From an uncultured Cytophagia bacterium (lineage in GTDB: Bacteria > Zhuqueibacterota > Zhuqueibacteria > Thermofontimicrobiales > Thermofontimicrobiaceae): a stretch of 64,000 nucleotides of DNA. Shown here piece after piece: positions 1,905 to 56,874 of the stretch (position 1 is its first letter; each line of letters opens with the position of its first letter). The notes beneath the pieces are model-generated. The model searched no databases, was not told the origin of the DNA, and saw only the letters and a list, made by a program, of their open reading frames with translations. The stretch is from assembly GCA_964647995.1 (NCBI GenBank), contig CAZYNP010000003.1, forward strand, positions 132,571 to 196,570. The letters run 5' to 3'. Made by a program: the position numbers and the translations under genes.

Positions 1905-3752
1905 TTATACCACTTTCTCCAGAGCAATAATGGCTTCCCGCGCCTGATCAAAGAATTTTTCCATATCCTCCTGCCTGGCGGTCGCCGGAGCAAATCGCTG
2001 ATAGTCGCACACCTGCAAACAGGCCAGATACTGCTGAATCACCTGCGGATCGATGTTGCGCGCTTTCATCAGCTCTTCCACCTGATCGGTGATAATGCCG
2101 GCAGCGGAGATATTGAATTTATCACCCAAAAAACCCATCAACGATTTGGCAATTTCGGCATAAAACGGCTTTTGTGTCTTCTCCGACAGCAGCTTCTTCG
2201 CCTTGTGCAACCGTTTCATGGCGATCTGATTGGCGCGCCGACTACGAGCATAGGCAACATTCTCACTCAACATATCCAGATGCTGCCGATAAGCAATCGC
2301 AGCCGCAACCATCAGCACCGGCAAAATGAACAGCAGCAGAAAGCCAAATTGGCGATAAGCATAAGTGCCAATCTTCTCAAATTCGGGCGAAGCTAACTGA
2401 ATAAAGCGAATGTCCTGGCCTACCAATTTCACTTCCTCTTTGGACAGGCCGGAAGTCGTCGTTAAAAATTCATCGCTGCCCTTTTGAACATCGATGATGA
2501 ATTCCGGCGTGCTCAGCGTTTTATAGCTTTTGCTGGCCAGATCAAAAAATGAAAAGAGAACCGGTTTGATCCGATGCAGCCCAGGATAGCGAGGGATCAG
2601 CACATATTCAAATGTCTTGTTCCCTGAAATACCACTTTCGGCCCGGTTGATGTTTTCAGAAATCTTGGGTTCATATTTTTCAAAATCCGGGGGCACCTCC
2701 AGTACAGGCGTCGGCACCATTTTGATATTGCCGGTTCCGGATATTTTTACCACCAGTGAAATGGCTTCATTGGTTTTTACCGCCTGCTTGTCCACATTCG
2801 CCGACAGATTGAACTGCCCTGCCAACCCCGAAAAATTGGCGGGTTTACCACCTTCTGGCAGCGGCATAACTTCGATGGTAATCGGATTGGACGCGATCGC
2901 TTTGGTAACCGACCGCCCAAAAAAGGGATCGTCAAAGAAGCTATCGAAAATGGACCGACGCTGCGTCTGCACCCGCACATTACATTCGATCTGCATCGGC
3001 CCGACGGTCTTGGTACCTGCCGCAGTGGGGAACATCACCTGGCGTTTGATTTCAGCCACAATATACTTCTTGCCATTGTAAATCTCTTCATGAGTCGGCG
3101 GCTGATTGCCCATGGGATATTCTTCCACCCAAAATCCCGCTGTTTCGGGCAGCTTATTGATTCCATATTGGGTTACAGTCACCCGAGTGTAGATTTTATA
3201 CGAGAGCACCACCGGCTCATTCACATACACCCGGCGCTTGCTGACCACCGCCCTCAAAAATAGATTTTCATCTGTTCCCGGAGTTAGCGGCTGATCGAAC
3301 GATGGCGCAGGGGTTCGGGGTGCAGCCGAGCCGGGCGGTTGCCCCGAACGGGAAGAGACAATTTCGATTTCAATGGGATTGGAGCTGTAGCTGCTACCAT
3401 TGAATTGGACCGTGACCGCCGGAATGGTAAATTTGCCCAACTGGGTGGTCATATATGTAAATGAATAGCTGATCGAGACACTCATGCGACCATTGATGAT
3501 CTGAATGTTTTGAGAGGTGCCGGAACTACCCATGTAGGTGGCAAACGCGCTCAAATCCGGAATCGTTGGCTCGCCCGCTTTATTAGCTTTATCGCCGGAG
3601 AGCGTTACTTCCAGCGTAAACGTTTCATTCAAACCGATCACCGTCCGATCAACAGAGGAGGTGATTTGAATATCTGCGCTCCAGGCAAGGCTGATGCTAC
3701 CGGCAATGACGATTACCATTGCCAAAATTTTATCGAACATTTGCCATTTCAT
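1905..3752 (-). CDS. batD: BatD family protein
   Basis: Repeated Ig-like BatD units (SSGTSQNIQIINGRMS; GFWVEE; FSGLAGQFNLSA; FEYVLIPRYPG), TM near the C-terminus, operon context. Confidence 0.9.
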   Translation of the reverse strand: MKWQMFDKILAMVIVIAGSISLAWSADIQITSSVDRTVIGLNETFTLEVTLSGDKANKAGEPTIPDLSAFATYMGSSGTSQNIQIINGRMSVSISYSFTYMTTQLGKFTIPAVTVQFNGSSYSSNPIEIEIVSSRSGQPPGSAAPRTPAPSFDQPLTPGTDENLFLRAVVSKRRVYVNEPVVLSYKIYTRVTVTQYGINKLPETAGFWVEEYPMGNQPPTHEEIYNGKKYIVAEIKRQVMFPTAAGTKTVGPMQIECNVRVQTQRRSIFDSFFDDPFFGRSVTKAIASNPITIEVMPLPEGGKPANFSGLAGQFNLSANVDKQAVKTNEAISLVVKISGTGNIKMVPTPVLEVPPDFEKYEPKISENINRAESGISGNKTFEYVLIPRYPGLHRIKPVLFSFFDLASKSYKTLSTPEFIIDVQKGSDEFLTTTSGLSKEEVKLVGQDIRFIQLASPEFEKIGTYAYRQFGFLLLFILPVLMVAAAIAYRQHLDMLSENVAYARSRRANQIAMKRLHKAKKLLSEKTQKPFYAEIAKSLMGFLGDKFNISAAGIITDQVEELMKARNIDPQVIQQYLACLQVCDYQRFAPATARQEDMEKFFDQAREAIIALEKVV

Positions 3753-3939
3753 AACTTATGACCTCTATGGTTCCATAGCCAACATCGCACTGCGCCGCAA
3801 ATCGGGGTCAATTAGCATCATACGGCGTCACCGCGTTGGCGGCTAATTGAACATCAGCAAATTGTTATTTTCGCGCAGGCCATCCGTGCTGCCTATCGAG
3901 TCAAAATCCACGCTGGCCGAACGAAATAATGTCACCCCA

Positions 3940-4704
3940 TTACCAATCCTTGAGCACCCGAACGCGTGCCTGCCGGACAGACTTCTTTTCTTTTTGCAGA
4001 TCTTTTTCATCCTCTTTCAATGCGTTGAGAATGCGTTCGGCTTCCTCCTTGCTCATCTGCGATTGATCTTTTTTCTCAGGTGTCTGCTGTTCTTTCTGTT
4101 GGGACTGTTGTTCTTCCGATTGCTGTGGTTCTTGTTGCTGTTGTTCCTCTTTCTGTTGCTCCTCGTTGCTCTGGGATTGCTGCTGATCTTGTTGCTGTTG
4201 CTGTTGTTGTTGCTGCTGTTGTTGATTATTTTGTGGCTGCTTTTGAGCCTGTTCCTTCAATTTGGCTCTGACAAATTCTAAATTATATTTGGCATCCTGA
4301 TCATCGGGATTGAGTTTTAGCGCCTGCGTGTAGGCCAGGATGCTCTCCGGCAATTTGCCCATGCGATATAGGGCATTGCCCATGTTATAATAGCTCTGGG
4401 ATTGCTTCAAAACGTCATTGACAGCGAGGCTCTTTTCATAATTTTTCATCGATTCTTCATAGTTCTTCTTTTTATACAGGGCGTTCCCAATATTGAAATG
4501 AATAATCGGATTGTCGGGATTGTTCACCAGAGCATCCCGATATTTATTATTGGCCTCGTCATATTTCTCCTGCTGGTACAAGCGATTCCCTTCCAGCACT
4601 TGCTGGCGAGCCGATTGCGCAGCCAGCATGGCAGGCAGTAACAGTACCGCGACCACCAGCCAGGCTCCCCAACGATGTGATTGGTTGATGTTAAAATCTC
4701 CCAT
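3940..4704 (-). CDS. batC: BatC-like TPR protein with Gln-rich linker
   Basis: Signal peptide, three TPRs (GNRLYQQEKYDEA; FNIGNALYKKKNYEE; YNMGNALYRMGKLPESI), poly-Q linker, typical end EAERILNALKEDEKDLQ...KDW. Confidence 0.85.
   Translation of the reverse strand: MGDFNINQSHRWGAWLVVAVLLLPAMLAAQSARQQVLEGNRLYQQEKYDEANNKYRDALVNNPDNPIIHFNIGNALYKKKNYEESMKNYEKSLAVNDVLKQSQSYYNMGNALYRMGKLPESILAYTQALKLNPDDQDAKYNLEFVRAKLKEQAQKQPQNNQQQQQQQQQQQQDQQQSQSNEEQQKEEQQQQEPQQSEEQQSQQKEQQTPEKKDQSQMSKEEAERILNALKEDEKDLQKEKKSVRQARVRVLKDW
4085..4245 (-). repeat. CAA/CAG low-complexity tract encoding a poly-Gln/Glu linker
   Basis: ttg/ctg triplet runs on the + strand; translation QQQQQQQQQQQQDQQQSQSNEEQQKEEQQQQ. Confidence 0.9.
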
Positions 4705-5719
4705 GCCATTCCTCTTTTACTTTTCGGCGCTCTGAAACAAAGACCTCGGCAACCAGCAGCACCAGAGCGATGATCAACAGATATTGGAAACGATCCTCAT
4801 ATTGTGAAAACTTGAGGGAAGCCAATTCCTTTTTTTCCATCTTCGATATTTCATCGTACAACTTGCGCAATTCGCTCTCGCTGCCGGTGGCTCGATAGTA
4901 TTTGCCGCCAGTTTGCAAAGCAATTTTCTCCAGGGTAATTTCATCCAATTTGCTGGTAACCACCTGGTCATCTCGATCCTTCTTGAAACCAACATTGCGG
5001 CCGCTTTCATTATACAGCGGTATCGGGACGCCCTGCACCGAGCCAATTCCCACGGTATGAATCACCACGCCATCTTTTTCGGCCAGCTCGGCCGCTTTCA
5101 ATGGCTCGCCCTCATGATCTTCGCCATCGGTGATCAAAATCAGCACCTTATGCTTGCGCTCCCGCTGATCGAATGTCTCCATGGCCTTCATGATGGCCGC
5201 ACCGATCGCAGTGCCCGGCTGCGGAATCAGATTGGTATCCATGATCTCCAGAAACATTTTCGCCGCCCCATAATCCAGCGTCAATGGGCACTGCACAAAT
5301 GGCACTCCGGCGAAGGCAATCAAACCCACCCGGTCGCCTTGCAACAGATCGATCAAATTGCTGACCATGTGTTTGGCTTTTTCCAGCCGGTTGGGCTTGA
5401 TATCTTCGGCCTGCATGGATAGCGAAACATCGATGGCGATTAAAATATCCACTCCTTCGCGCTTCACTTCTTCCAGCTTGGTGCCGATCTGCGGTTTCGC
5501 CAATGCCAGGATCATGAACAAAATCGCCAACAGCAACAAAGAAATCTTGCCCACCTGTCGCTGGCGGCTGATCGATTGCGTCAATTTCTTGATGAGCTCC
5601 AAATTGCCAAATCGCTGCAGCGCCGCCTTTTTCCAGCGAAAAACCATGACATAAAAAGCAATCAAAATGGGTATTAGCCACAGAAGATAAAGATACATTA
5701 CATTGTCAAAGCGAAACAT
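4691..5719 (-). CDS. batB: BatB-like vWA domain membrane protein
   Basis: N-terminal BatA TM segment, MIDAS DVSLSM, GDRVGLIAFAG, PLTLDY, LITDGED, C-terminal TM. Confidence 0.92.
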   Translation of the reverse strand: MFRFDNVMYLYLLWLIPILIAFYVMVFRWKKAALQRFGNLELIKKLTQSISRQRQVGKISLLLLAILFMILALAKPQIGTKLEEVKREGVDILIAIDVSLSMQAEDIKPNRLEKAKHMVSNLIDLLQGDRVGLIAFAGVPFVQCPLTLDYGAAKMFLEIMDTNLIPQPGTAIGAAIMKAMETFDQRERKHKVLILITDGEDHEGEPLKAAELAEKDGVVIHTVGIGSVQGVPIPLYNESGRNVGFKKDRDDQVVTSKLDEITLEKIALQTGGKYYRATGSESELRKLYDEISKMEKKELASLKFSQYEDRFQYLLIIALVLLVAEVFVSERRKVKEEWHGRF

Positions 5720-5813
5720 ATCTCGTAACCTGCCCGCTATCTATTCTTTAAAAAATTAAAGGCACCTGATCAAAACTTTGGCTTGTCGCGGCCACCGTCA
5801 TCCCAACCCTGCC

Positions 5814-6809
5814 TTATGGAATCTTGCGGAAGCGCGTGTTGGCCAGCACAATTTCCACCAGCAGCACCGCCAGGGCAAGCGCTAAAAAATTGACAAACAG
5901 TTCGGTATAGCGAGTGAATTCCTTCACTTCAATTTTGGTTTTCTCTAACTGACCGATTTCGCGATAGATATTTTCCAGACTGGTCTTGTCGGTAGCCCGA
6001 TAGTATTTGCCACCGGTAATATTGGCAATCCGGGTGAGCATTTCGTCATCGATATCCACCTGCATCGGCACATACCGGCGCCCCAAAAATGGATCGTCAA
6101 TGGGATACATTGCCTCGCCACGCTTCCCCGCGCCAATGGTGTAGATGCGAACATTGAGCGCTTTGGCAATTTGCGCCGCGGTGATGGGATCGATTTCCCC
6201 GCGATTGTTGCGCCCGTCGGTCAACAGGATCACCACCTTGCTTTTGGCTTTGCTCATTCGCAGTCGATTGACGCAGTTGGCAATTGCCATGCCAATCGCT
6301 GTGCCGTCTTCAATCATACCGATATGGATCTCTTTCAGAAAATTCAACAAAATGCCATAATCCAGCGTCAGGGGACACTGGGTAAAGCTCTTGCCAGAAA
6401 ATACCACCATCCCGATTCGATCATTGGTTCGCTCTCGGATGAATTGGGAAGCCACCTCTTTGGTTACGTCGAGGCGATTTTTATGCTGCTCCAGATCCTC
6501 GGCCAGCATGCTGCTGGATATATCCATGGCCAGGATAATATCAATGCCCTCGGTGATGATTTTCTCCTCTTTGGCACTGGATTGAGGTCGCGCAAAGCCA
6601 ATGATTATCAATGAAATCACCACCACCCGCAGCAGAAATAGAATATGGCGAAAGCGCTGCGAGGGCGTTCGGCTGACGCCCTTGATGACTCCCAGATTGG
6701 AGAAACGCAGAGTACCGCTGGCTTTCACCCGGCGCTGGAGATACCAGAAGATCATCAATGGCACAATGGCCAATAAAATCAAAAATTCCGGATTGGCAAA
6801 ACGAACCAT
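5814..6809 (-). CDS. batA: BatA-like vWA domain membrane protein
   Basis: MVRFANPEFL start, MIDAS DISSSM, DRIGMVVF, GTAIGMAI, LLTDGRNNRG, ITGGKYYRATD. Confidence 0.93.
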   Translation of the reverse strand: MVRFANPEFLILLAIVPLMIFWYLQRRVKASGTLRFSNLGVIKGVSRTPSQRFRHILFLLRVVVISLIIIGFARPQSSAKEEKIITEGIDIILAMDISSSMLAEDLEQHKNRLDVTKEVASQFIRERTNDRIGMVVFSGKSFTQCPLTLDYGILLNFLKEIHIGMIEDGTAIGMAIANCVNRLRMSKAKSKVVILLTDGRNNRGEIDPITAAQIAKALNVRIYTIGAGKRGEAMYPIDDPFLGRRYVPMQVDIDDEMLTRIANITGGKYYRATDKTSLENIYREIGQLEKTKIEVKEFTRYTELFVNFLALALAVLLVEIVLANTRFRKIP

Positions 6810-35116: not shown

Positions 35117-38100
35117 GTGACTCCCATGCTGCGGCTGATTCCAATAGTGCTCATTGCTTTTTTCCAGCAATTGCCCCTATTTTCGCAACGCCTCGTTATC
35201 AATGAAATCATGTCCCAAAACACCAGCACCATTGCCGATAACGACCATGACTTCTCGGACTGGATCGAAATTTACAATGCCGATAGCGTTGCGGCCAACT
35301 TGAACGGCTTTGGCCTATCCGATGACTTCAGCCTGCCCTTCAAGTGGACCTTTCCGGCAGTTACGCTTCCCGCCAAAAGTTGCTTGCTGGTCTTTGCTTC
35401 CGGGAAAGACATTCGGGCGCTTCCGGCGCATTGGGAGACCGTGATCGACTGGGGCGACGATTGGAAATACCTGGTACCGGCGGCCGAGCCGGTCACCAAT
35501 TGGCGCAGCCCCAGCTTCGATGATTCCGCCTGGCCCACCGGCCCCAGCGGTTTCGGTTATGGCGATGGCGATGACGCCACCCTCCTGGCCAATCCGGATC
35601 ACTTTCAGCCGTCCCCCGTTTCGGTTTTCATTCGGAAAAAATTCACCGTAACCAATCTCGCCGATATTGTGCGCCTGGTGCTGCATGTCGACTTTGACGA
35701 TGGCTTTGTCGCCTATCTCAATGGCATCGAATTGGCGCGTAGCAACATGGGGCCGCCTGGGAAGTTGCCTGCATTCGACGAGTTCGCATCGGCTTCCCAC
35801 GAGGCCCAATTGTATCGCGGCGGTGAACCAGAACCATTCATGATTGCTGCGCCTGGCTCATTTCTGCTCCCGGGCGAGAATTATCTGGCGCTGGAGGTAC
35901 ATAATGCCGAACTCTATTCATCGGATTTGACGCTGATCCCATTCCTGACGCTGGAAATGAAAACCCCACCCGAGCATGGCCGGGGCGTCTCGCGCCATCT
36001 CCAGTTTCCCAGCTCGCCGCTGCAATTACACACCAATTTCAAAATCAAAGCCAGCGGCGAAACGCTGCGGCTAACTCATCCCCGCGGCGAGGTTGGCGAT
36101 CAGGTCACTATCGGTTTGCTGCCACCGGACATTTCCTTTGGCCGGCAGCCTGACGGCGGCGCCAACTGGTATTTTTTCGATCAGCCCACCCCGGCGCTCA
36201 GCAATACCCGGCCTGGCTATCAGCAGATAGCCGAACCACCCTCCTGCTCGCTCCCCGGCGGTTTTTACAACCAGCCGCTGCAGGTCGAGTTAACCAGCGC
36301 CCACCATGGCGCGGTGATTCGTTACACCCTGGATGGCTCACTCCCGACGGATACCTCATCCGGCTACGATTCACCTGTGCTGATCACCAAAACTACGGTC
36401 CTGCGGGCACGCGTATTTGGTTCAGGTCTGCTGCCAGGCGCAACCACCACGCAAACCTATCTTATCAATCAGCAATTTAGCCTGCCGGTCATCTCGCTGG
36501 TCACCGATCCGGCCAATCTATGGGACGTGGATAAGGGGATTTATGTTTTTGGCAAACATGCCGACACGCTCAACTATCCCTACTGGGGGGCTAATTTTTG
36601 GCAGGACTGGGAGCGCCCCATTCACCTGGAATTTTTTGAATCCAATGGAGTGCGGGGCTTTGATCTGGATGCCGGCGTTCAAATCTTCGGCTCCTGGAGT
36701 CGCCTCTACCCACAGAAGTCATTGGCCATTTTTGCCCGATCGAATTATGGCGCGGATGCCATTCGTTATTCGATTTTTCCGGATAAACCCATCGCCAGCT
36801 TCCAATCCCTGATCTTGCGGAACTCGGGTCAGGATTGGGGGCGAACTTTCTTTCGCGATGCCATGATGCAATTTTTGGTGCGAGCGACCATGGATCTCGA
36901 TATTCAGGCCTACCGTCCCGCCATGGTCTTTTTGAATGGCCAGCTTTGGGGCATTCACAACATTCGCGAAAAAATGAGCGAACACTATCTGGCTTCCAAT
37001 CGCCGCGTCGATCCCGAAAACATCGATTTCGTGGAGCGGGATAGCATGGTCATTAAAGGCGATCTATGGCACTATCGGCACCTGCTGCAGTTCATCGCCA
37101 CGAACGATCTGGCGCAGACCGAAAACTACGATTATGTTCGCGGCTTGATGGATGTGGAAAATTTCATGGACTACACCATCGCCGTCATCTATTTTGCCAA
37201 TCCCGATTGGCCCTGGAACAATGTGAAATGCTGGCGTCCGAGAACTGCCACCGGTCGCTGGAAATGGCTGCTCTATGATCTGGATTATGGCTTCCATGGC
37301 GGACACCTGGGTCCCGAGGCCAATATGTTTCGAGAAATGCGCCATCAGACCAATGGCACCACCGCTCTTTTTTTTCAGTTGCTGCAAAATAGCGAGTACC
37401 GTCGCCAATTCATCGATCGCTTTGCGGATCATCTGAACATCACCTTCGAGCCCGCGCGCGTGTTGCAAATTATCAAACAGTTCCAGGCGGGAATTGAAGC
37501 CGACATGCCCAGCCATATCGCCAGGTGGAAGGGCACCTTTACTGGCCCCTGGTGGCTCGGCAAATCCATCGATTCCATGGACGAATGGTACAGTCATATC
37601 AGCGTCTTGAATGACTTTGCGCAGCGACGCCCCGATTTTTTGCGAAGACAATTGCTGGAAGAATTTGGCCTGGTTGATGGCGGTATTGCAATTATCAAGT
37701 TGAACACCCAACCCACTCTCGGTGGACAAATCAAGCTCAATAGCCAGCTTCTCCATCAATTTCCCTGGTATGGCATCTATTTTCCCGATGTGCCCATCGA
37801 CCTGACCGCGATTCCTGCTCCGGGCTTTCGCTTCTCGCATTGGATCGGCCTCAGGCCCTCTGACCAGCCCGCCATCACCGCCAGGATCGCCGATCGCCAG
37901 GAAATCACTGCCGTCTTTGTGCCTGATACCACGGTCAGTGGCAGCATCGTGGTCACCGAGATCAACTACCAGTCGCACCCGTCAACTGATGCGGGCGATT
38001 GGATCGAATTGTACAATCGTGGGGCAACCACAATCGACCTGGCGGGCTGGATTTTCCGGGATGCCGAGGATCAACACCAATTTCAGATACCGCCGGCCAC

Positions 38101-38731
38101 CGTCATCACGCCGCACAGTTATCTTGTCCTCTGCCAGGACCAGCAGCGCTTTTCGGATCAATTTCCCGAAGTACATGGCTGCGCTGGTGACTTTTCTTTT
38201 GGTTTGAGCAGCAACGGTGATTCCATTCGCGTGGTTGATGCCGTCGGGAACAGGATCATTGCGTTTTGGTATGGCACTCAAACGCCCTGGCCTGAAGCCG
38301 CCAATGGCAGTGGGAAAACTTTGGCCTTAAAACATCCAGACCTATCGCCAGCATTGCCGCAAAATTGGGCAGCGTCGAACCAGATCGGGGGTACGCCTGG
38401 AGCGCCCAACGATTTGATCTCGGCTACTCAGCCAACTGCTCCTATGCCACCACCGATCGGCGAGCTGTTTCCCAATCACCCCAACCCATTCAATTCTGGC
38501 ACGAAGATTGAATTTTCCCTTGCCCAGCGCCAGGCGGTGTCGCTTCAAATCTATAACCTATTAGGCCAGACAATCCGGGTGCTCTGCCAGCAGCTGTTGC
38601 CTGCCGGAAAGCATGCCTTTTATTGGAACGGGAACGATTTTTCCGGCCAGGCCTGCCCTTCGGGAATATACTTCTGTCTGTTGACCACCGATAGCCATCA
38701 ACTGGTTCGAAAAATGGTGTTGATTCGCTAA
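35117..38731 (+). CDS. CotH kinase family protein with lamin-tail domains, Fn3-associated domain and PNPFN tail
   Basis: LTDs (VINEIMSQN...DWIEIYN; VVTEINY...DWIELYN), RYTLDGSLPT, WERPIHLEFF, LILRNSGQDW, YLNG-like FLNGQLWGIHNIREK, DWPWNN, WLLYDLDYGF, PNHPNPFNSGT tail. Confidence 0.88.
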   Translation: MTPMLRLIPIVLIAFFQQLPLFSQRLVINEIMSQNTSTIADNDHDFSDWIEIYNADSVAANLNGFGLSDDFSLPFKWTFPAVTLPAKSCLLVFASGKDIRALPAHWETVIDWGDDWKYLVPAAEPVTNWRSPSFDDSAWPTGPSGFGYGDGDDATLLANPDHFQPSPVSVFIRKKFTVTNLADIVRLVLHVDFDDGFVAYLNGIELARSNMGPPGKLPAFDEFASASHEAQLYRGGEPEPFMIAAPGSFLLPGENYLALEVHNAELYSSDLTLIPFLTLEMKTPPEHGRGVSRHLQFPSSPLQLHTNFKIKASGETLRLTHPRGEVGDQVTIGLLPPDISFGRQPDGGANWYFFDQPTPALSNTRPGYQQIAEPPSCSLPGGFYNQPLQVELTSAHHGAVIRYTLDGSLPTDTSSGYDSPVLITKTTVLRARVFGSGLLPGATTTQTYLINQQFSLPVISLVTDPANLWDVDKGIYVFGKHADTLNYPYWGANFWQDWERPIHLEFFESNGVRGFDLDAGVQIFGSWSRLYPQKSLAIFARSNYGADAIRYSIFPDKPIASFQSLILRNSGQDWGRTFFRDAMMQFLVRATMDLDIQAYRPAMVFLNGQLWGIHNIREKMSEHYLASNRRVDPENIDFVERDSMVIKGDLWHYRHLLQFIATNDLAQTENYDYVRGLMDVENFMDYTIAVIYFANPDWPWNNVKCWRPRTATGRWKWLLYDLDYGFHGGHLGPEANMFREMRHQTNGTTALFFQLLQNSEYRRQFIDRFADHLNITFEPARVLQIIKQFQAGIEADMPSHIARWKGTFTGPWWLGKSIDSMDEWYSHISVLNDFAQRRPDFLRRQLLEEFGLVDGGIAIIKLNTQPTLGGQIKLNSQLLHQFPWYGIYFPDVPIDLTAIPAPGFRFSHWIGLRPSDQPAITARIADRQEITAVFVPDTTVSGSIVVTEINYQSHPSTDAGDWIELYNRGATTIDLAGWIFRDAEDQHQFQIPPATVITPHSYLVLCQDQQRFSDQFPEVHGCAGDFSFGLSSNGDSIRVVDAVGNRIIAFWYGTQTPWPEAANGSGKTLALKHPDLSPALPQNWAASNQIGGTPGAPNDLISATQPTAPMPPPIGELFPNHPNPFNSGTKIEFSLAQRQAVSLQIYNLLGQTIRVLCQQLLPAGKHAFYWNGNDFSGQACPSGIYFCLLTTDSHQLVRKMVLIR

Positions 38732-38849: not shown

Positions 38850-38909
38850 ACACCAACAGCTAAGCTGCGCTGCTCGAATATCAATGGATTTTTTCAGGAG
38901 ATGATCTTC

Positions 38910-40982
38910 ATGATTTTTATTGCTACCAAAAATTTTAAAAAATTCATCCTTGCGCTCTCGATTCTGTCGTTCATTGCTTCATGGGGTCTGGCCCAAACCA
39001 TCGTGCTCAAGCCGATCGATCTCAACACCCAATTAACCGATGGCAGTATGACCGCCGCGGCTGAGCCGCCGTTCACTAAAAATGGTTTTGAGAAAATTTT
39101 CGACGGCAATGCCTATACCGAGGCCGCGGTTCAAAACAGCGATTCCTTGATTCTCACCCTGCGATTTGGCAGCCCCATCACCATCGGCAAAAGCAAAGTG
39201 TTTTTCTGGAACAACGGTCACTGGACCCTGGAGGCCGCTGCTAATGAGGCTGATCTAAACGCCAGGCAAGGATCGTACCAGGTGCTCGTCTCGCAACGCC
39301 CGTATCGATTTTTTGGCTGGGACTCCTCTTCGTTTGCCGCACTGCCGGCCAAGCTTATTCGCTTACGAGCCTCGAATACGGAGTACCTGGGAATCTATCT
39401 CGGCGAGTGGATGCTTTTTCAGCCCGACCAGATCGTTGCGCTGCAAATCGTACCATCGCCCATTCAAATCATTCCTGGCACCTCGCTCACCCTGAAGTTA
39501 AATCAGGTGGATCATCAGGGAACTATTTCTGCCTATAATTTGAAGGACCCCATTTTCTGGAATACTACGGATCAATCCATCGCCACGGTGGATGAATTGG
39601 GAGTGGTTACCGGACTGGCCCTCGGAACCACCCAATTGACAGTGGATGCGGCGAATCTTCATGCCGCCACCTCGGTCACCGTCGTGCCTGATTTTAAAGC
39701 GACCAATGCAACACCATTAACCATCAAGGTCGCAGTGGTTTTGCAAGACCCGGTGATTGACAAAGTGAACAACCGGCGCATCCATCAGGTGCGCAATTGG
39801 ACGCCCCCAATGACGCTGATCTATCAGCTTCAGGAAGAATTCGCTCAAGCCAGCGATGGCGTGGTGCAATTTGAGCTGGCCGAGATTCATGACGATCAAT
39901 TTGTATTCACTCGACTGGATGGTCAATTCATGACCATCGATACGATGAACTATTATTACGGCCCCGGCGGGCCTCTGTATGGCCGCGAAGTGGAAGGCAC
40001 CCTCCAGAATCTGGCCGAAAAGTACAATCGAGTGCGCTTCGACTACAATGCGATGATCGATTATTATGACTTCGCCAACAAACGCAATCAAAATGTGATC
40101 CATGAAGTCTGGGTCTATGCACCACCCTTCGGGGGAATGTACGAATCGCAATTAGTTGGCCCCAATGCCTTCTGGTACAATTCGCCGCCCCTGCAGCATC
40201 CGGGATTGAATAAGCTCCTGTCGGTCATGGGCTGGAACTACGAGCGCGGCATTGCCGAAGCCATGGAAAGTTTTGGTCATCGTTCCGAGAGCGCCCTGGT
40301 GCATGCGTTTGGCGACCGCTGGGATGTGCATGCGGCCAATCCCACCGCGTGGGAAATTTTCACCCGCATTGATAAAGATTTCCCGGGCGGCGCCCATGTG
40401 GGCAATATCCATTTTCCGCCCAACGGCTTGAGCGATTACGATTACAGCAACCGGCGCTACGTGGTTACTTACGCTGATAATTGGAAACGATACCCAATCT
40501 TGCTGAACCAGAACCGCATGGTGAATTGTGCAGAATGGGGCAATACCCATCGTGGCTATTTGCACTGGTGGTTTAGCCATTTGCCGCGATTCACCGGTGT
40601 CACCGATGGCGTCCTGAATAATTGGTGGCATTACATCGTCGACTTCGAGGAGGCAGTGGCATTGGCCAACCAGCCTTCTCGCATCGAACCGGTCCTTGAA
40701 GACCCGCCTTATCGACCCATAAATTTTCGGCTGGAGCAAAACTACCCCAATCCATTCAATGGTCAAACCAACATTCGCTTTCACCTGACGGAGAAATCGC
40801 CGGTGAAGATCACCATTTTTGACCTATTGGGTCGCCAGATAGCCGTGATCCTGGATGAATGGCGAGAGCCTGGCGCACATACCGTGCGCTGGGAGGCACG
40901 AGATTGCGCCAGCGGCCTGTATTTTTATCAGCTCGAGTCTAACACATTTATTCAAACGAAAAAACTGTTGCTCATCAAATAA
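38910..40982 (+). CDS. Secreted protein: discoidin-like N-domain, Big_2 Ig-like domain, zincin-like domain with non-canonical ExxxH motif, PNPFN tail
   Basis: IFDGNAYT...LTLRF; WNTTDQSIATVDELGVVTGLALGTTQLTV; HEVWVYAPPFGGMYES...WNYERGIAEAMESFGHRSES...GNIHFPPNGLSDYDY; EQNYPNPFNGQT. Start 38910 gives correct spacing from AGGAG. Confidence 0.65.
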   Translation: MIFIATKNFKKFILALSILSFIASWGLAQTIVLKPIDLNTQLTDGSMTAAAEPPFTKNGFEKIFDGNAYTEAAVQNSDSLILTLRFGSPITIGKSKVFFWNNGHWTLEAAANEADLNARQGSYQVLVSQRPYRFFGWDSSSFAALPAKLIRLRASNTEYLGIYLGEWMLFQPDQIVALQIVPSPIQIIPGTSLTLKLNQVDHQGTISAYNLKDPIFWNTTDQSIATVDELGVVTGLALGTTQLTVDAANLHAATSVTVVPDFKATNATPLTIKVAVVLQDPVIDKVNNRRIHQVRNWTPPMTLIYQLQEEFAQASDGVVQFELAEIHDDQFVFTRLDGQFMTIDTMNYYYGPGGPLYGREVEGTLQNLAEKYNRVRFDYNAMIDYYDFANKRNQNVIHEVWVYAPPFGGMYESQLVGPNAFWYNSPPLQHPGLNKLLSVMGWNYERGIAEAMESFGHRSESALVHAFGDRWDVHAANPTAWEIFTRIDKDFPGGAHVGNIHFPPNGLSDYDYSNRRYVVTYADNWKRYPILLNQNRMVNCAEWGNTHRGYLHWWFSHLPRFTGVTDGVLNNWWHYIVDFEEAVALANQPSRIEPVLEDPPYRPINFRLEQNYPNPFNGQTNIRFHLTEKSPVKITIFDLLGRQIAVILDEWREPGAHTVRWEARDCASGLYFYQLESNTFIQTKKLLLIK

Positions 40983-52795: not shown

Positions 52796-53644
52796 TTACA
52801 GCAGTTCTTTATAAATGTTCTCCCGATTGGGATCCAGTTGGATCAATTTGCGAAAGATGTCCCGATCAGGAGAATTCTTAAACAGTTCTACGATCTCAAT
52901 ATAATGTGCTTGGAGGAAATTGTCAACTCGCTTGAACTTTGGATTTTCCTGCTTCTTGATTTCTTCGAGCATATTGATGGCTTCTTTGCAGTAAGTTCTG
53001 GCTTTGGCGGGGTCTTCTTTGGCAAAATATAGACCGTAGAAATAGAAATCTTTCATCTCGCGATACTTTTTGGTCTTATCACTCACCAGATCATGAATTA
53101 ACTCAACCCGGATGTCCCAGCCTTCGATGAACTGCCCCATGCCAAACCGAGCTTGCTCGGCAATAAGCTTGGCTTTTTCAAAATAGGAATTGCCTAACAG
53201 GTGACCAAATTTGTCCATCTCCTCGCCGATAATGATATTTACATAAAAATCCAGCAGACTGGTGAGGGAATCCCAATTATTCTCGGAATGAACCGGTATT
53301 TCGCCTTTCTGATATTCCATCCGGCAGCGCTTATCGGAATACTGGACATCCGAATTGTTCGAAATCAGCAATTGCACCTTGTATCGGTCTTCATAGCTGA
53401 CGCTGATATCCTGTAACAGCATATTCAAGCTAACCTTGATTTCACCAATGAACTCATCATTGGTCCATTTGTAATTATTCAGATAATCTTCCAGGACATT
53501 TTTAAAATTGCTGAGTTTTTCGCGCTTTTCATCTGGCAGCGCATTTAATTCTAAATCAACGGTTGCTCGAATCGTTTGCGCACTGACGACTGGAAGATGG
53601 ATCAATCCGAACCAATAACAACATGCAAGAGCGATAATAGCCAT
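52796..53644 (-). CDS. DUF4835 family protein (T9SS-associated in Bacteroidota)
   Basis: LEDYLNNYKW, LLDFYVNIIIGEEMDKF...GNSYFEKAK...GWDIRVEL...FYFYGL. Start moved to 53644. Confidence 0.7.
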   Translation of the reverse strand: MAIIALACCYWFGLIHLPVVSAQTIRATVDLELNALPDEKREKLSNFKNVLEDYLNNYKWTNDEFIGEIKVSLNMLLQDISVSYEDRYKVQLLISNNSDVQYSDKRCRMEYQKGEIPVHSENNWDSLTSLLDFYVNIIIGEEMDKFGHLLGNSYFEKAKLIAEQARFGMGQFIEGWDIRVELIHDLVSDKTKKYREMKDFYFYGLYFAKEDPAKARTYCKEAINMLEEIKKQENPKFKRVDNFLQAHYIEIVELFKNSPDRDIFRKLIQLDPNRENIYKELL

Positions 53645-53741
53645 GACACGCTGGAAATTGCCCTCGCTGCGAACGGTACCAGGCCTCTTTGCTATCATTT
53701 ATGTCCTCCAACGGAAGGTTGCCATTCATCCACTATTCTTT

Positions 53742-54692
53742 TTGTCAAACTTACGAATTTTAACGGAAAGAAGCAAGCAAATAGTTGTTACGTTCTGGCT
53801 CAAGCCATGCCTGCTCACGCCACTCATCGGTTGTCTTGTTCTGGCACAAGCCTGCCTTGCCAGTTTTGAGTTGAACGGTTGTGCTGCGCGCTATCATGCC
53901 CTGGGCAAAGCCTACGTCGGCCGGGCCAATACTCCCGATGCGATTTTTAGCAACTGCAGCGGCCTGGCGCAAGCCGGCTACCCCTCAGCCGTTTTCTTTT
54001 ATACCAACCTCTTTGGCATGAAGGAGCTTGCCCACGCCTCATTTTCAGCAGTGGTCCCAACGCCCATCGGCTACTTTGGCGCGGGAATGATTAACTTTGG
54101 TAATGAGACCTATCGTGAACAATCGCTCCTGCTGTCCTACAACCGCTCGATCGGCTCAAAATTCTACTGGGGCTGCAATCTGCATTATATGAAACTCCAG
54201 ATTGATCGCTATGGTTCAGATTTTTCGATCGTCCTGGATGCCGGGTGGCTGTTAAAAGTCACTTCCAACTTCCAATGGGGGTTCTGTGCTGGCAACATCA
54301 CTCGTTCTAATCTCAGTTCGGGTTCGAAGCCCTTACCCCAAACTCTTGCTATGGGATTTAGCTATCAGCCAATTGCTCCCGCGATTTTCAACCTGGATTT
54401 TTTCAAGGAGACGACATTTCCAATGGAGCTTCGTGCGGGCATCGAATATTATCTATTCCAACGAATTGCACTTCGCAGCGGATTTTCTACCGCTCCGACC
54501 CAATTTTCCGCCGGTTTTGGGTTGTTGCTTTCGGTGGTGGAAATCGATTATGCCATCGCCACCCATGCTGATCTTGGTCTAACGCATTATTTCTCGATTC
54601 AATTTCCGGTGAAAAAGCAGCAAAGTACTCTGGCCAGGCCTCCCAATAACGCCAAATCCGAACCACGAACCACTTGCGAAGATCAATATTAA
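53742..54692 (+). CDS. PorV-like outer-membrane beta-barrel, apparently truncated before a C-terminal HhH domain
   Basis: ARYHALGKAY...AIFSNCSGLAQ...FYTNLFGMKEL...FGNETYRE...IDRYG...LDAG...LRSGFS...FSAGFG...HADLGLTHYFS. Start uncertain (ORF track gives 53643, which collides with the divergent gene). Confidence 0.7.
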   Translation: MSNLRILTERSKQIVVTFWLKPCLLTPLIGCLVLAQACLASFELNGCAARYHALGKAYVGRANTPDAIFSNCSGLAQAGYPSAVFFYTNLFGMKELAHASFSAVVPTPIGYFGAGMINFGNETYREQSLLLSYNRSIGSKFYWGCNLHYMKLQIDRYGSDFSIVLDAGWLLKVTSNFQWGFCAGNITRSNLSSGSKPLPQTLAMGFSYQPIAPAIFNLDFFKETTFPMELRAGIEYYLFQRIALRSGFSTAPTQFSAGFGLLLSVVEIDYAIATHADLGLTHYFSIQFPVKKQQSTLARPPNNAKSEPRTTCEDQY

Positions 54693-54873
54693 TCGGACAG
54701 GTGAACCGGAACTCTGACAAATTTCAGGACTCAGCCGGCTCCGGAACCAACGCATCGTTCGGCATCGCCGGATGAGCAGCCCATTTATGGAATTAGAGAC
54801 GCTAACGAACGTTAACGCCATTAGCCCCAAGCAATGGAAACCATTACTTTTTGATTTTACTATTTCGGATTAG
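54679..54873 (+). pseudogene. Decayed ComEA-type helix-hairpin-helix domain (frameshifted, internal TGA)
   Basis: Frame +1 relative to the preceding ORF reads KININRTGEPEL*QISGLSRLRNQRIVRHRRMSSPFMELETLTNVNAISPKQWKPL...FTISD*, matching the ComEA HhH pattern. It ends at the TAG overlapping the next gene's AGGAG. Confidence 0.7.
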
Positions 54874-54882
54874 GAGCGATTC

Positions 54883-56874
54883 ATGCCACTGCGGTATTGG
54901 TTATTGGTATTGATCGGGCTCAATTTCACCTCCAGCCTTTTTTCGCAGCAATCCGACCTGGACTGGTTTCTGGAGCGAACGGAAGAATTTGAGGAAGCTT
55001 CGGAGGTGTTGGAACTATTAGCCGAGTTCGAGAGACACCCCATCGATCTCAATCAGGCAACCGAAGAGCAGTTGCTGGTTCTGCCCTGGATTTCGGAACC
55101 GATGGCCAAACGCCTGGTAGCCTATCGCGCCCGAAAGGGACCCTTTAGAGATCTGGAGGACCTGGCTCGAATTCCTCACTTCAACATCGAACTTATTCCC
55201 CTGCTGCGGCCTTATGTCGTGGTACGAGCGGTAGAAACGCCTGATGCTTTCTCTGCCACCCTGAAAACCCGCATGATCGAAAAATTGGAAAAAAATGTCG
55301 GTCTGCGCACGGGCACCTATTATCCATCATCGCCTAAAGTTTATAACCGGATAGATCTCGGTTTCCGCAATCGTTTAAACGCCGGGTTGATCCTGGAAAA
55401 AGACACTGGCGAGCGGCGATGGAATGATTTGGGTTTGGCATTTATCAAATTTGCCGATCCTGCCCAAAACTATCGTCTCATTCTGGGGAATTATCGGCTG
55501 GAGTTTGCTCACGGCCTGGTTTTTGGCAATCCCATATATCACGGAACAGGTTATCAGCCGCTGTTGCCGGCCAAAGGGCAGAGCCGGCAGTTGGTGGAAT
55601 ACACGCTGGTGGACGAAAATGCTTCACTTTACGGAGGTGCTGGTCAACTTTCCTTCAAATTTTATCAAATTTTCATTTTTTATTCACAGCAGCGTCTCGA
55701 TGCCTTGTTGAATAGCGACGGCAGCATTAAAAATTTTTACACTTCAGGCTATCATCGCAACCCGACGGAACTCAGCAAGAAAGACCAGCTTACCGAAACC
55801 GTGTTCGGCGCCAGAGTTGGCCTGCTGCCGGTGCGGGATTTTTCCCTGGGAGTAACCGCCTATCGCTCCCGATACAGTCAACCCATTCGGCCCGAGATCA
55901 AGTCCCACTCGCTGTTTGACTTTCGAGGTAGCCGCAATGGTATCGTTGGTGTCGATTTTTCAGCCAATCTGGGTGTGGTCCAGATCTTCGGTGAGTCTGC
56001 TCGCTCGCAAAATAATGGTTTCGGCCTAATCGCTGGCGCCATTTGGGAGACTCCGGCCATCGAAATGGCGTTGATGGCGCGACATTATACCAGGAATTTT
56101 CAAAGTTTGCATGGCAAAAGTTACAGCCAGAGGAGTGATCAGCCTCAAAATGAGAGCGGTATTTATATGGGGCTGCAATTGTCACCAATTAAGCCGCTAA
56201 AACTTATAGTCTCTTTTGATCATTTCAAGTTTCCCTGGGCGACCTATTTGATGCCGTTACCCGCCAGTGGGACGGAGTTGCTGCTGCGGATGGAATACCG
56301 ATCCAGGCGTAAACTTAATTTTTACTGGCAGCTCAAAGCAACTCAACGTGATCATGGCCTTAGCTATCTGGATGAGCTGAAACGAGACCACCAGATCATT
56401 GCGATGCGGCGCCAGATGACCGCTCGCTGGCAACTGGAATACCAACCCTGGTCACAACTACGAATTCGTGGCCGTATCGAAGCAACCTGGATCAATTATG
56501 ATCCCCATGAAGCCGCATTAACGCAGCAATTCCCCAAACGCCACGGCATCCTGCTATTTCAAGAAGCAGTTGTAGCTGTTACTAAAAATTTAACCTTCAA
56601 CAGTCGACTCACTTTCTTTGACACCGACGACTACGATAGCCGGCTCTATCAATTTGAGCATGATGTGCCGTCGATGATGACCAATAGCCTGCTCTATGGG
56701 GTGGGCAATCGCTGGTATGCCAATGTCCAATGGAAATTCGGCGCGCAATTCCGGCTTTCGGCTAAATTCAGTTCCACCAGGTACTATTTTCAGGATACCA
56801 TCGGCACAGGGTGGGACTTAATACCCAGCGATTGCTTGCATGCCCTGCACCTTCAATTCGAAGCATCTCTGTAA
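54883..56874 (+). CDS. ComEA-like helix-hairpin-helix domain protein with a large C-terminal beta-barrel
   Basis: Signal peptide; PIDLNQATEEQLLVLPWISEPMAKRLVAYRARKGPFRDLEDL; barrel motifs LEKDTGE, ILGNYRLEFAHGLV, SGYHRNPTE, FFDTDDYDSRLYQFEHDV. Confidence 0.85.
   Translation: MPLRYWLLVLIGLNFTSSLFSQQSDLDWFLERTEEFEEASEVLELLAEFERHPIDLNQATEEQLLVLPWISEPMAKRLVAYRARKGPFRDLEDLARIPHFNIELIPLLRPYVVVRAVETPDAFSATLKTRMIEKLEKNVGLRTGTYYPSSPKVYNRIDLGFRNRLNAGLILEKDTGERRWNDLGLAFIKFADPAQNYRLILGNYRLEFAHGLVFGNPIYHGTGYQPLLPAKGQSRQLVEYTLVDENASLYGGAGQLSFKFYQIFIFYSQQRLDALLNSDGSIKNFYTSGYHRNPTELSKKDQLTETVFGARVGLLPVRDFSLGVTAYRSRYSQPIRPEIKSHSLFDFRGSRNGIVGVDFSANLGVVQIFGESARSQNNGFGLIAGAIWETPAIEMALMARHYTRNFQSLHGKSYSQRSDQPQNESGIYMGLQLSPIKPLKLIVSFDHFKFPWATYLMPLPASGTELLLRMEYRSRRKLNFYWQLKATQRDHGLSYLDELKRDHQIIAMRRQMTARWQLEYQPWSQLRIRGRIEATWINYDPHEAALTQQFPKRHGILLFQEAVVAVTKNLTFNSRLTFFDTDDYDSRLYQFEHDVPSMMTNSLLYGVGNRWYANVQWKFGAQFRLSAKFSSTRYYFQDTIGTGWDLIPSDCLHALHLQFEASL

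Follow-up and report, generated by a model that had tools for sequence, protein, structure and literature searches.

Domains of the ComEA type, collected in Pfam as HHH_3 (PF12836), are periplasmic domains of competence systems that bind double-stranded DNA non-specifically. Decaying gene fragments are also known, from Rickettsia and from Mycobacterium leprae. The locus described here brings the two subjects together. In the window, by which we mean the whole stretch of 64,000 nucleotides that was analysed, 190 bp (54693-54882) form the gap between the gene for a small outer-membrane barrel and its partner gene. At a probability that we put near 93%, this gap is a domain-level pseudogene: the dead helix-hairpin-helix (HhH) tail of a former barrel-HhH fusion, lost by a frameshift and a nonsense mutation and now drifting.

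The gene upstream of the gap encodes a PorV/FadL-like outer-membrane barrel with 14 predicted strands, as judged from a PorV family match, 38 homologs, and the model of a homolog. It lies on the + strand at 53742..54692 and ends in TAA at 54690-54692. Its start is ambiguous. TTG at 53742 is called in P0001, which is 97% identical, and gives a plausible signal peptide ending ...AQACLA before SFELNG. The other candidate, ATG at 53643, is called in the homologs P0002 and P0003 and would overlap the first 56 bp of a divergent PorD-like gene. Most members of the barrel family start at the equivalent of approximately 53766, where the window has no start codon. A Pfam search with the barrel protein gives no match. 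The NCBIfam PorV_fam model NF033709 aligns at E = 2 × 10−15 with 57.1 bits, below its cut-off of 90, and the other PorV/PorQ cut-offs are missed as well (NF033711, 26.5 against 220; NF052325, 23.6 against 325). The AlphaFold model of P0003, an intact homolog, has a confident 14-strand barrel (pLDDT > 90), a low-confidence linker, and a confident HhH. Its top PDB fold match is 8gl6_F (E = 4 × 10−10, TM 0.53/0.59), followed by TodX, FadL, and OmpG. The entry 8gl6 is the T9SS complex of F. johnsoniae.

The partner gene, downstream of the gap at 54883..56874 (+), encodes 663 amino acids made up of a signal peptide, an intact periplasmic HHH_3 domain at approximately 55036-55224 (Pfam E = 5.6 × 10−12), and a very large beta-barrel, on the evidence of Pfam, of tblastn across loci, and of a model. 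That model has pTM 0.77 and about 24 to 28 strands, and a fold search with it found generic large barrels only (ushers, TonB-dependent receptors, MtrB, AlgE) and no specific relative. On the other side of the barrel gene, and divergently transcribed, is a DUF4835 or PorD-like gene (52796..53698, − strand) with Pfam DUF4835 E = 8 × 10−34 and 114 bits to NCBIfam T9SS_PorD, below the cut-off of 170. PorD itself is known as a T9SS accessory protein of the periplasm and as a binding partner of PorW (PMC8754138). The PorD-like neighbor is kept in KSB1 loci and is absent from Bacteroidota loci. Elsewhere in the window, at 35117-38731 and 38901-40982 (+), there are encoded two large secreted proteins with the T9SS C-terminal sorting domain (Por_Secre_tail), the first of them also with CotH kinase, Lamin-tail, and chitobiase-C domains. 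On account of these two proteins, the organism very likely has a type IX secretion system.

An earlier sequence-only reading of this DNA had proposed that the gap holds a 64-codon HhH-like sequence, in the +1 frame of the barrel gene and with one TGA, and both the coordinates and a Pfam match agree. Frame +1 is open from 54613, overlapping the end of the barrel in frame 0, and from 54679 it reads KININRTGEPEL, a stop, QISGLSRLRNQRIVRHRRMSSPFMELETLTNVNAISPKQWKPLLFDFTISD, and a final stop. As a feature the pseudogenised HHH_3 domain is at 54679..54873 (+), consisting of 64 codons plus the ancestral stop, and its sole internal stop is the TGA at 54715-54717. The terminal TAG at 54871-54873 shares bases with the AGGAG that serves the next gene as Shine-Dalgarno, 7 nt upstream of its ATG at 54883. 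That this TAG marks the ancestral gene end was also part of the sequence-only reading, and the intact fusions described below do share the stop codon. The combined TAG and Shine-Dalgarno (54871..54876, +) is invariant among strains while the remnant drifts. An ORF of 33 amino acids at 54772-54873 was considered as a micro-protein and ruled out, its ATG being CGG in the sister strain.

The conceptual translation of the remnant, with the stop as X, aligns to Pfam HHH_3 over profile positions 5-56 of 65 with E = 1.9 × 10−9 and 37.9 bits, above the Pfam gathering score of 27, so that the check for an HHH_3 match came out positive. With a family-specific HMM, for which 18 intact members supplied the tails, the remnant reaches 42.5 bits (E = 10−13). 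When the same HMM was run over all six frames of the 64-kb window, just two places scored above zero, namely the remnant and the HhH encoded by the downstream gene. Taken together, the scan and the profile matches make the remnant a real observation, far beyond chance. It misses the ComEA cut-offs of NCBIfam, with 32.3 bits against 152.35 for TIGR01259 and 23 against 53.1 for TIGR00426. There is no intact ORF, the remnant being out of frame with the barrel gene, interrupted by the TGA, and without a start of its own. It is what remains of an HHH_3 family member, not a functional member.

The proposal that the ancestor was a barrel-HhH fusion is upheld by its living relatives. The homolog search with the barrel finds 38 relatives, mostly from KSB1 bacteria, of which about 20 (350-409 aa) have PF12836 and the rest (266-316 aa) are without it. 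The nearest intact genes are P0002 and P0003, each of 409 aa and with a barrel about 80% identical to that of the window, and about 18 further fusions have 350-373 aa. Tails of the intact family follow the motif (K)ININTA...LQ.IPGIG...A..II.YR...G.F.S.EEL..VKGIG...L..I. When the window barrel and remnant are aligned to 18 intact fusions, there are zero gaps in the tail, all the way to the last codons (ISD and stop versus ISE and stop). The barrel alignment is gap-free as well, and every family-invariant residue is retained in the window barrel. P0003, found in three KSB1 MAGs, is syntenic: its context (L002, L003, L005) has the same eight genes as the window, namely sensor kinase, SBP_bac_5, Big_5, PorD-like, barrel-HhH, 663-aa HhH-barrel, DUF6913, and GGDEF. 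On the P0002 contig, which is 3.3 kb long, there are just three genes: the PorD-like gene (its end only), the barrel-HhH gene, and the one for the 663-aa protein. Measured against the P0003 lineage (L002), the window is 80% identical for the barrel and 70% for the partner, as compared with 95% for PorD-like, 94% for GGDEF, and 91% for DUF6913. At 80% amino-acid identity, the synonymous sites of the window and P0003 have probably reached saturation. The higher divergence of both barrels relative to their neighbors would be expected for surface-exposed proteins under diversifying pressure.

DNA alignment with the intact genes indicates what disabled the tail. From the end of the barrel to the KININ codons, the window and the sister contigs L001 and L032 all have exactly one nucleotide more than the intact L002 and L031. 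Poor conservation of the linker means that the insertion is given as a range rather than an exact site, possible anywhere in 54613-54692 and put by the alignment at approximately 54650-54668. The second lesion is the premature stop, TGA at 54715..54717 (+) where the closest intact genes have Arg codons (CGA, CGC). Apart from the extra nucleotide and the stop, the window DNA is collinear with its two closest intact relatives down to the common stop and Shine-Dalgarno. The former linker (54606..54692, +), which contains the insertion and has dN/dS 0.41, is now a junk C-terminal extension of the barrel that reads PVKKQQSTLARPPNNAKSEPRTTCEDQY and then a stop.

Such lesions could in principle be artefacts of sequencing or assembly, with the real gene an intact barrel-HhH fusion. 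The window appears metagenomic, all matching runs being metagenomes, and a single-base indel is the commonest assembly error. However, Logan assemblies of two independent hot-spring runs (23x and 60x) match the window letter for letter over 54300-55100 and reproduce the broken frame exactly. This check was made at the level of Logan contigs, and an intact allele that is rare in the population would escape it. Three further lineages share the frame break and stop: a JGI contig, two Logan contigs, and runs of other studies have the +1 nt and, where the window has TGA, likewise a stop, together with further lesions, and the substitution pattern is neutral. We therefore assign an assembly error practically no weight.

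The JGI contig (L001), whose barrel protein is 97% identical, has the +1 nt and has TAA in place of the TGA of the window. The X3/L001 variant has two private lesions in addition: 10 bp are missing from an imperfect direct repeat, and one TGG has become TGA. The repeat is ACGCTAACGA / ACGTTAACGC, at window 54797-54816, and its position at the deletion suggests replication slippage. In the L032 lineage there are the +1 nt, a TAA followed by a second TAA, and a 1-nt deletion, and run X4 appears similar to it in having the same 1-nt deletion. The X7/X11 lineage comes from other hot springs; its premature stop is TAA, and it is free of indels when aligned to the window. In X7/X11 the present frame-0 stop of the barrel (54690-54692) has also changed, from TAA to GAA, and the ORF would gain four codons before frame 0 closes again; the extension newly added to the barrel C-terminus is itself drifting. 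As the +1 nt and the stop are common to all, both lesions predate the separation of these strain lineages, at least four in number, from hot springs and bioreactor sludge. Because three of the four have TAA, the simplest account of the TGA is that one stop replaced another on the branch of the window itself.

A quantitative indication of how selection has changed comes from the comparison of the window to sister strain L001 using NG86. The remnant differs at 16 of 171 sites (9.4%), with the differences falling 4/7/5 on codon positions 1/2/3 and a dN/dS of 1.41, a value that rests on 58 codons. For the barrel the corresponding figures are 6/2/17 and 0.11, for the 663-aa partner 23/12/53 and 0.16, and for the PorD-like gene 2/1/20 and 0.02. 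True intergenic DNA is 7% different between the same two strains, and the third positions of the flanking genes are 6-8% different. Purifying selection is gone from the tail and is still acting on the barrel and the downstream gene. The sequence-only reading had stated that the tail is being lost while the barrel stays intact, and both halves of that statement hold: the one through the dN/dS of 1.4, the even spread over codon positions, and the lesions in at least four lineages, and the other through the dN/dS of 0.11 and the gap-free alignment with its family-invariant residues kept. Protein comparisons show the same separation, since the window, P0002, and P0003 are 80-82% identical to one another in the barrel, whereas in the tail the window is 44% and 34% identical to the two intact relatives, which are 64% identical to each other.

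The remnant has changed at 13 of the 28 tail positions that are conserved at 80% or more. Among the changes are A to T, P to S, L to R, A to N, and G to A, all at residues invariant in the 18 intact tails. Replacement of several consensus glycines had been claimed as a sign of decay, and this stands in part. The invariant Gly of the second hairpin has become Ala and the Gly of 'GPF' has become Ser, but the second Gly of the first hairpin is no lesion, because it is Ser in the closest intact relatives as well as in the remnant. These replacements also bear on the idea that the tail is still made, by a +1 ribosomal frameshift in the linker combined with read-through or reassignment of the TGA. 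What makes programmed recoding worth considering is the +1 frame, open from 54613 so as to overlap the end of frame 0, and the single internal stop in the window copy. The TAA in three other lineages excludes reassignment of TGA, though, and in sister strains the tail has extra stops and has lost 10 bp or 1 bp. With changes even at residues invariant among the intact tails, and a dN/dS of 1.4, the chance that the tail is still translated in this way is vanishingly small.

The remnant might also not be the tail of the barrel at all, if it were a decayed duplicate of the N-terminal HhH of the partner or a decayed, separate, small ComEA-like gene. An intact HhH does occur only 160 bp downstream and in the same reading frame, and the barrel relatives in Bacteroidota are without a tail. 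But the remnant is nearer to the orthologous P0003 tail (47% identity, 51.6 bits) than to the HhH of the partner (30%, 26.9 bits). Its alignment to the fusions is also collinear all the way from the end of the barrel to the common stop, with a linker of equal length plus 1 nt, and the remnant has neither a start codon nor a signal peptide of its own, the sole internal ATG (54772) being CGG in the sister strain. We consider an origin outside the barrel gene very improbable. Since the remnant is without start codon and signal peptide and the linker is of the length seen in the fusions, a later origin of the fusions, by the joining of a separate small HhH gene once this lineage had branched off, is also unlikely. 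The barrel-tail origin is accordingly retained in what follows.

A different possibility is that the 190 bp is being kept for a regulatory role on the partner gene, for example as an internal promoter, attenuator, or spacer. Four lineages still have the stretch at approximately 10% divergence, and its last 12 nt, with the Shine-Dalgarno, are conserved. Outside the Shine-Dalgarno, however, divergence is at or above the neutral rate, 10-bp and 1-bp deletions have been tolerated, and in other lineages nothing of the tail is left, the gap being only 5-24 bp. A search of the gap for promoter- or terminator-like sites found none. Metatranscriptome contigs, from 4 runs of one study, cover 53500-54172 only, which is outside the gap. 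A regulatory reason for keeping the stretch has, in our estimation, only a slim chance of being right. The pseudogene reading is in accord with a frame broken relative to intact syntenic orthologs, with lesions reproduced in independent contigs, and with the loss of purifying selection, and no evidence contradicting it was encountered.

The same tail seems to have been lost elsewhere in the family. In a neighbor-joining tree of barrel cores, rooted on tail-less Bacteroidota sequences, the deepest branch of KSB1 and most of the clades have the tail, and tail-less tips occur in at least seven separate places, a count that is approximate as the tree has no support values. The HhH tail has thus probably been lost repeatedly within the family, in at least seven places. 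An intermediate is seen in L004, from a complete 5.2-Mb genome (CP070762.1, 4840-4998). Its barrel ORF ends ...TNKI and stop, where KININ would begin, and the 107-bp gap that follows ends in ...NFILQMAL, a stop, TPKLESIKPYVIIVK, and a stop adjoining the Shine-Dalgarno of the next gene, the retained tail end of 15 residues being KLESIKPYVIIVK before its stop. L004 is an independent partial loss through internal deletion, in which the first half of the HhH was deleted and the second has decayed. At the far end of the series, the tail is cleanly absent from L027 and L029, with gaps of 24 and 5 bp. A family-HMM search for remnants in the tail-less L007, L018, L020-L022, and L027-L030 gave nothing above noise, the one exception among tail-less loci being the 15-residue end in L004, and for these it is the tree that points to a probable loss. 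In L026 (SMTZ1_10001524, 3958-3971), the barrel matches in two frames (query 1-157 in frame 3 and 149-246 in frame 1) and the HhH tail is intact, which would be either a frameshift inside the barrel or a contig assembly error.

The pairing of the two barrel genes is more widely conserved than the tail. In every locus with enough downstream DNA, from KSB1 and from four Bacteroidota, a small barrel gene is directly upstream of the 663-aa homolog. The Bacteroidota small barrels are 27-35% identical and have no tail. In the four Bacteroidota MAGs (L009-L012, approximately 3500-6400 in each), the tail-less PorV-like barrel is followed by a protein of 650-700 aa with HhH and large barrel, and the PorD-like, Big_5, and DUF6913 neighbors typical of KSB1 are missing. 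The partner keeps its own HHH_3 in 24 of 24 KSB1 homologs.

The course of events we propose would begin with a single outer-membrane protein having a 14-stranded PorV/FadL-like barrel, a linker of approximately 24 residues, and a periplasmic C-terminal ComEA-type HHH_3, its gene ending 7-13 nt before the start of the partner gene. Insertion of 1 nt in the linker shifted the HhH codons out of frame, such that translation ends at the TAA at 54690-54692. A premature stop appeared inside the HhH at 54715-54717, and both lesions became fixed before at least four strain lineages diverged. Afterwards the 190 bp drifted neutrally by substitutions, stop-to-stop changes, and private indels, with the barrel and the downstream gene remaining under purifying selection. 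Given the even number of strands in the modeled barrel, the tail was probably periplasmic, and by analogy to ComEA it may have bound DNA. Its loss may have been tolerated because the adjacent 663-aa partner, which retains its periplasmic HhH in every KSB1 homolog, supplies an equivalent domain. The two genes are probably still co-transcribed, as the gap has no terminator or promoter motif and the Shine-Dalgarno of the partner is conserved; that Shine-Dalgarno would now work without translational coupling.

What the pair does is the more speculative part. One suggestion, which we regard as doubtful, is that it forms the outer-membrane part of an undescribed DNA-handling apparatus, for DNA uptake or release, in KSB1 and Bacteroidota. 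On this suggestion the 14-strand PorV-like barrel, with or without HhH, would dock on the 650-690-aa HhH plus very large barrel in the way that PorV does on the SprA translocon. If that were true, the recurrent loss of one periplasmic HhH would be a natural experiment on a dispensable DNA-binding module.

Our results go beyond the sequence-only reading in naming the disabling lesions, which are the +1-nt linker insertion and the stop, in dating the loss to before the split of at least four lineages, and in finding the same tail lost elsewhere in the family. For annotation, the 'intergenic' 190 bp is a pseudogenised domain and the barrel gene is a truncated form of a barrel-HhH fusion. For evolution, the locus is a well-dated snapshot of domain loss, with the stages laid out in related genomes as intact fusion, frameshift and stop, added indels, short remnant, and clean deletion. 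For function, it draws attention to an uncharacterised but conserved pair of outer-membrane barrels, each with a ComEA-like periplasmic domain, that no paper found in the literature search describes. In a search for a barrel-HhH fusion or a PorV with HhH, the PorV/PorQ papers returned describe neither an HhH tail nor a large HhH-barrel as partner, and the HhH protein of R. anatipestifer transformation has a different architecture (PMC8459023).

With respect to known systems, we file the barrel neither as PorV nor as PorQ, and the tail not as ComEA, because both score below the curated cut-offs. The likeness of the barrel to PorV/PorQ consists of the NF033709 match at E = 2 × 10−15, the 14 predicted strands, the fold match to 8gl6 chain F, the PorD-like neighbor, and the T9SS cargo genes in the window. 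It differs in scoring 57 against a cut-off of 90, and in being paired with a 663-aa barrel, a pairing found also in Bacteroidota without the PorD neighbor. The likeness of the tail to ComEA is in the HHH_3 profile match above the Pfam cut-off, the motif pattern of the intact members, and the predicted periplasmic location. However, ComEA is free or anchored in the inner membrane, whereas here the domain is a C-terminal appendage of an outer-membrane barrel. The copy in the window is moreover dead and far below the ComEA family cut-offs, and DNA binding by the intact members is putative. As a process, domain loss by pseudogenisation is well known and ordinary, and it is the gene pair that is uncharacterised. 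Like other bacterial pseudogene remnants, this one has a disabling indel and a nonsense mutation, neutral drift, progressive deletion, and a hiding place in an 'intergenic' gap, and related lineages show the later stages down to clean deletion. It differs from them in that one domain has been lost with the rest of the gene under purifying selection, and in that the same domain appears to have been lost independently many times in one family.
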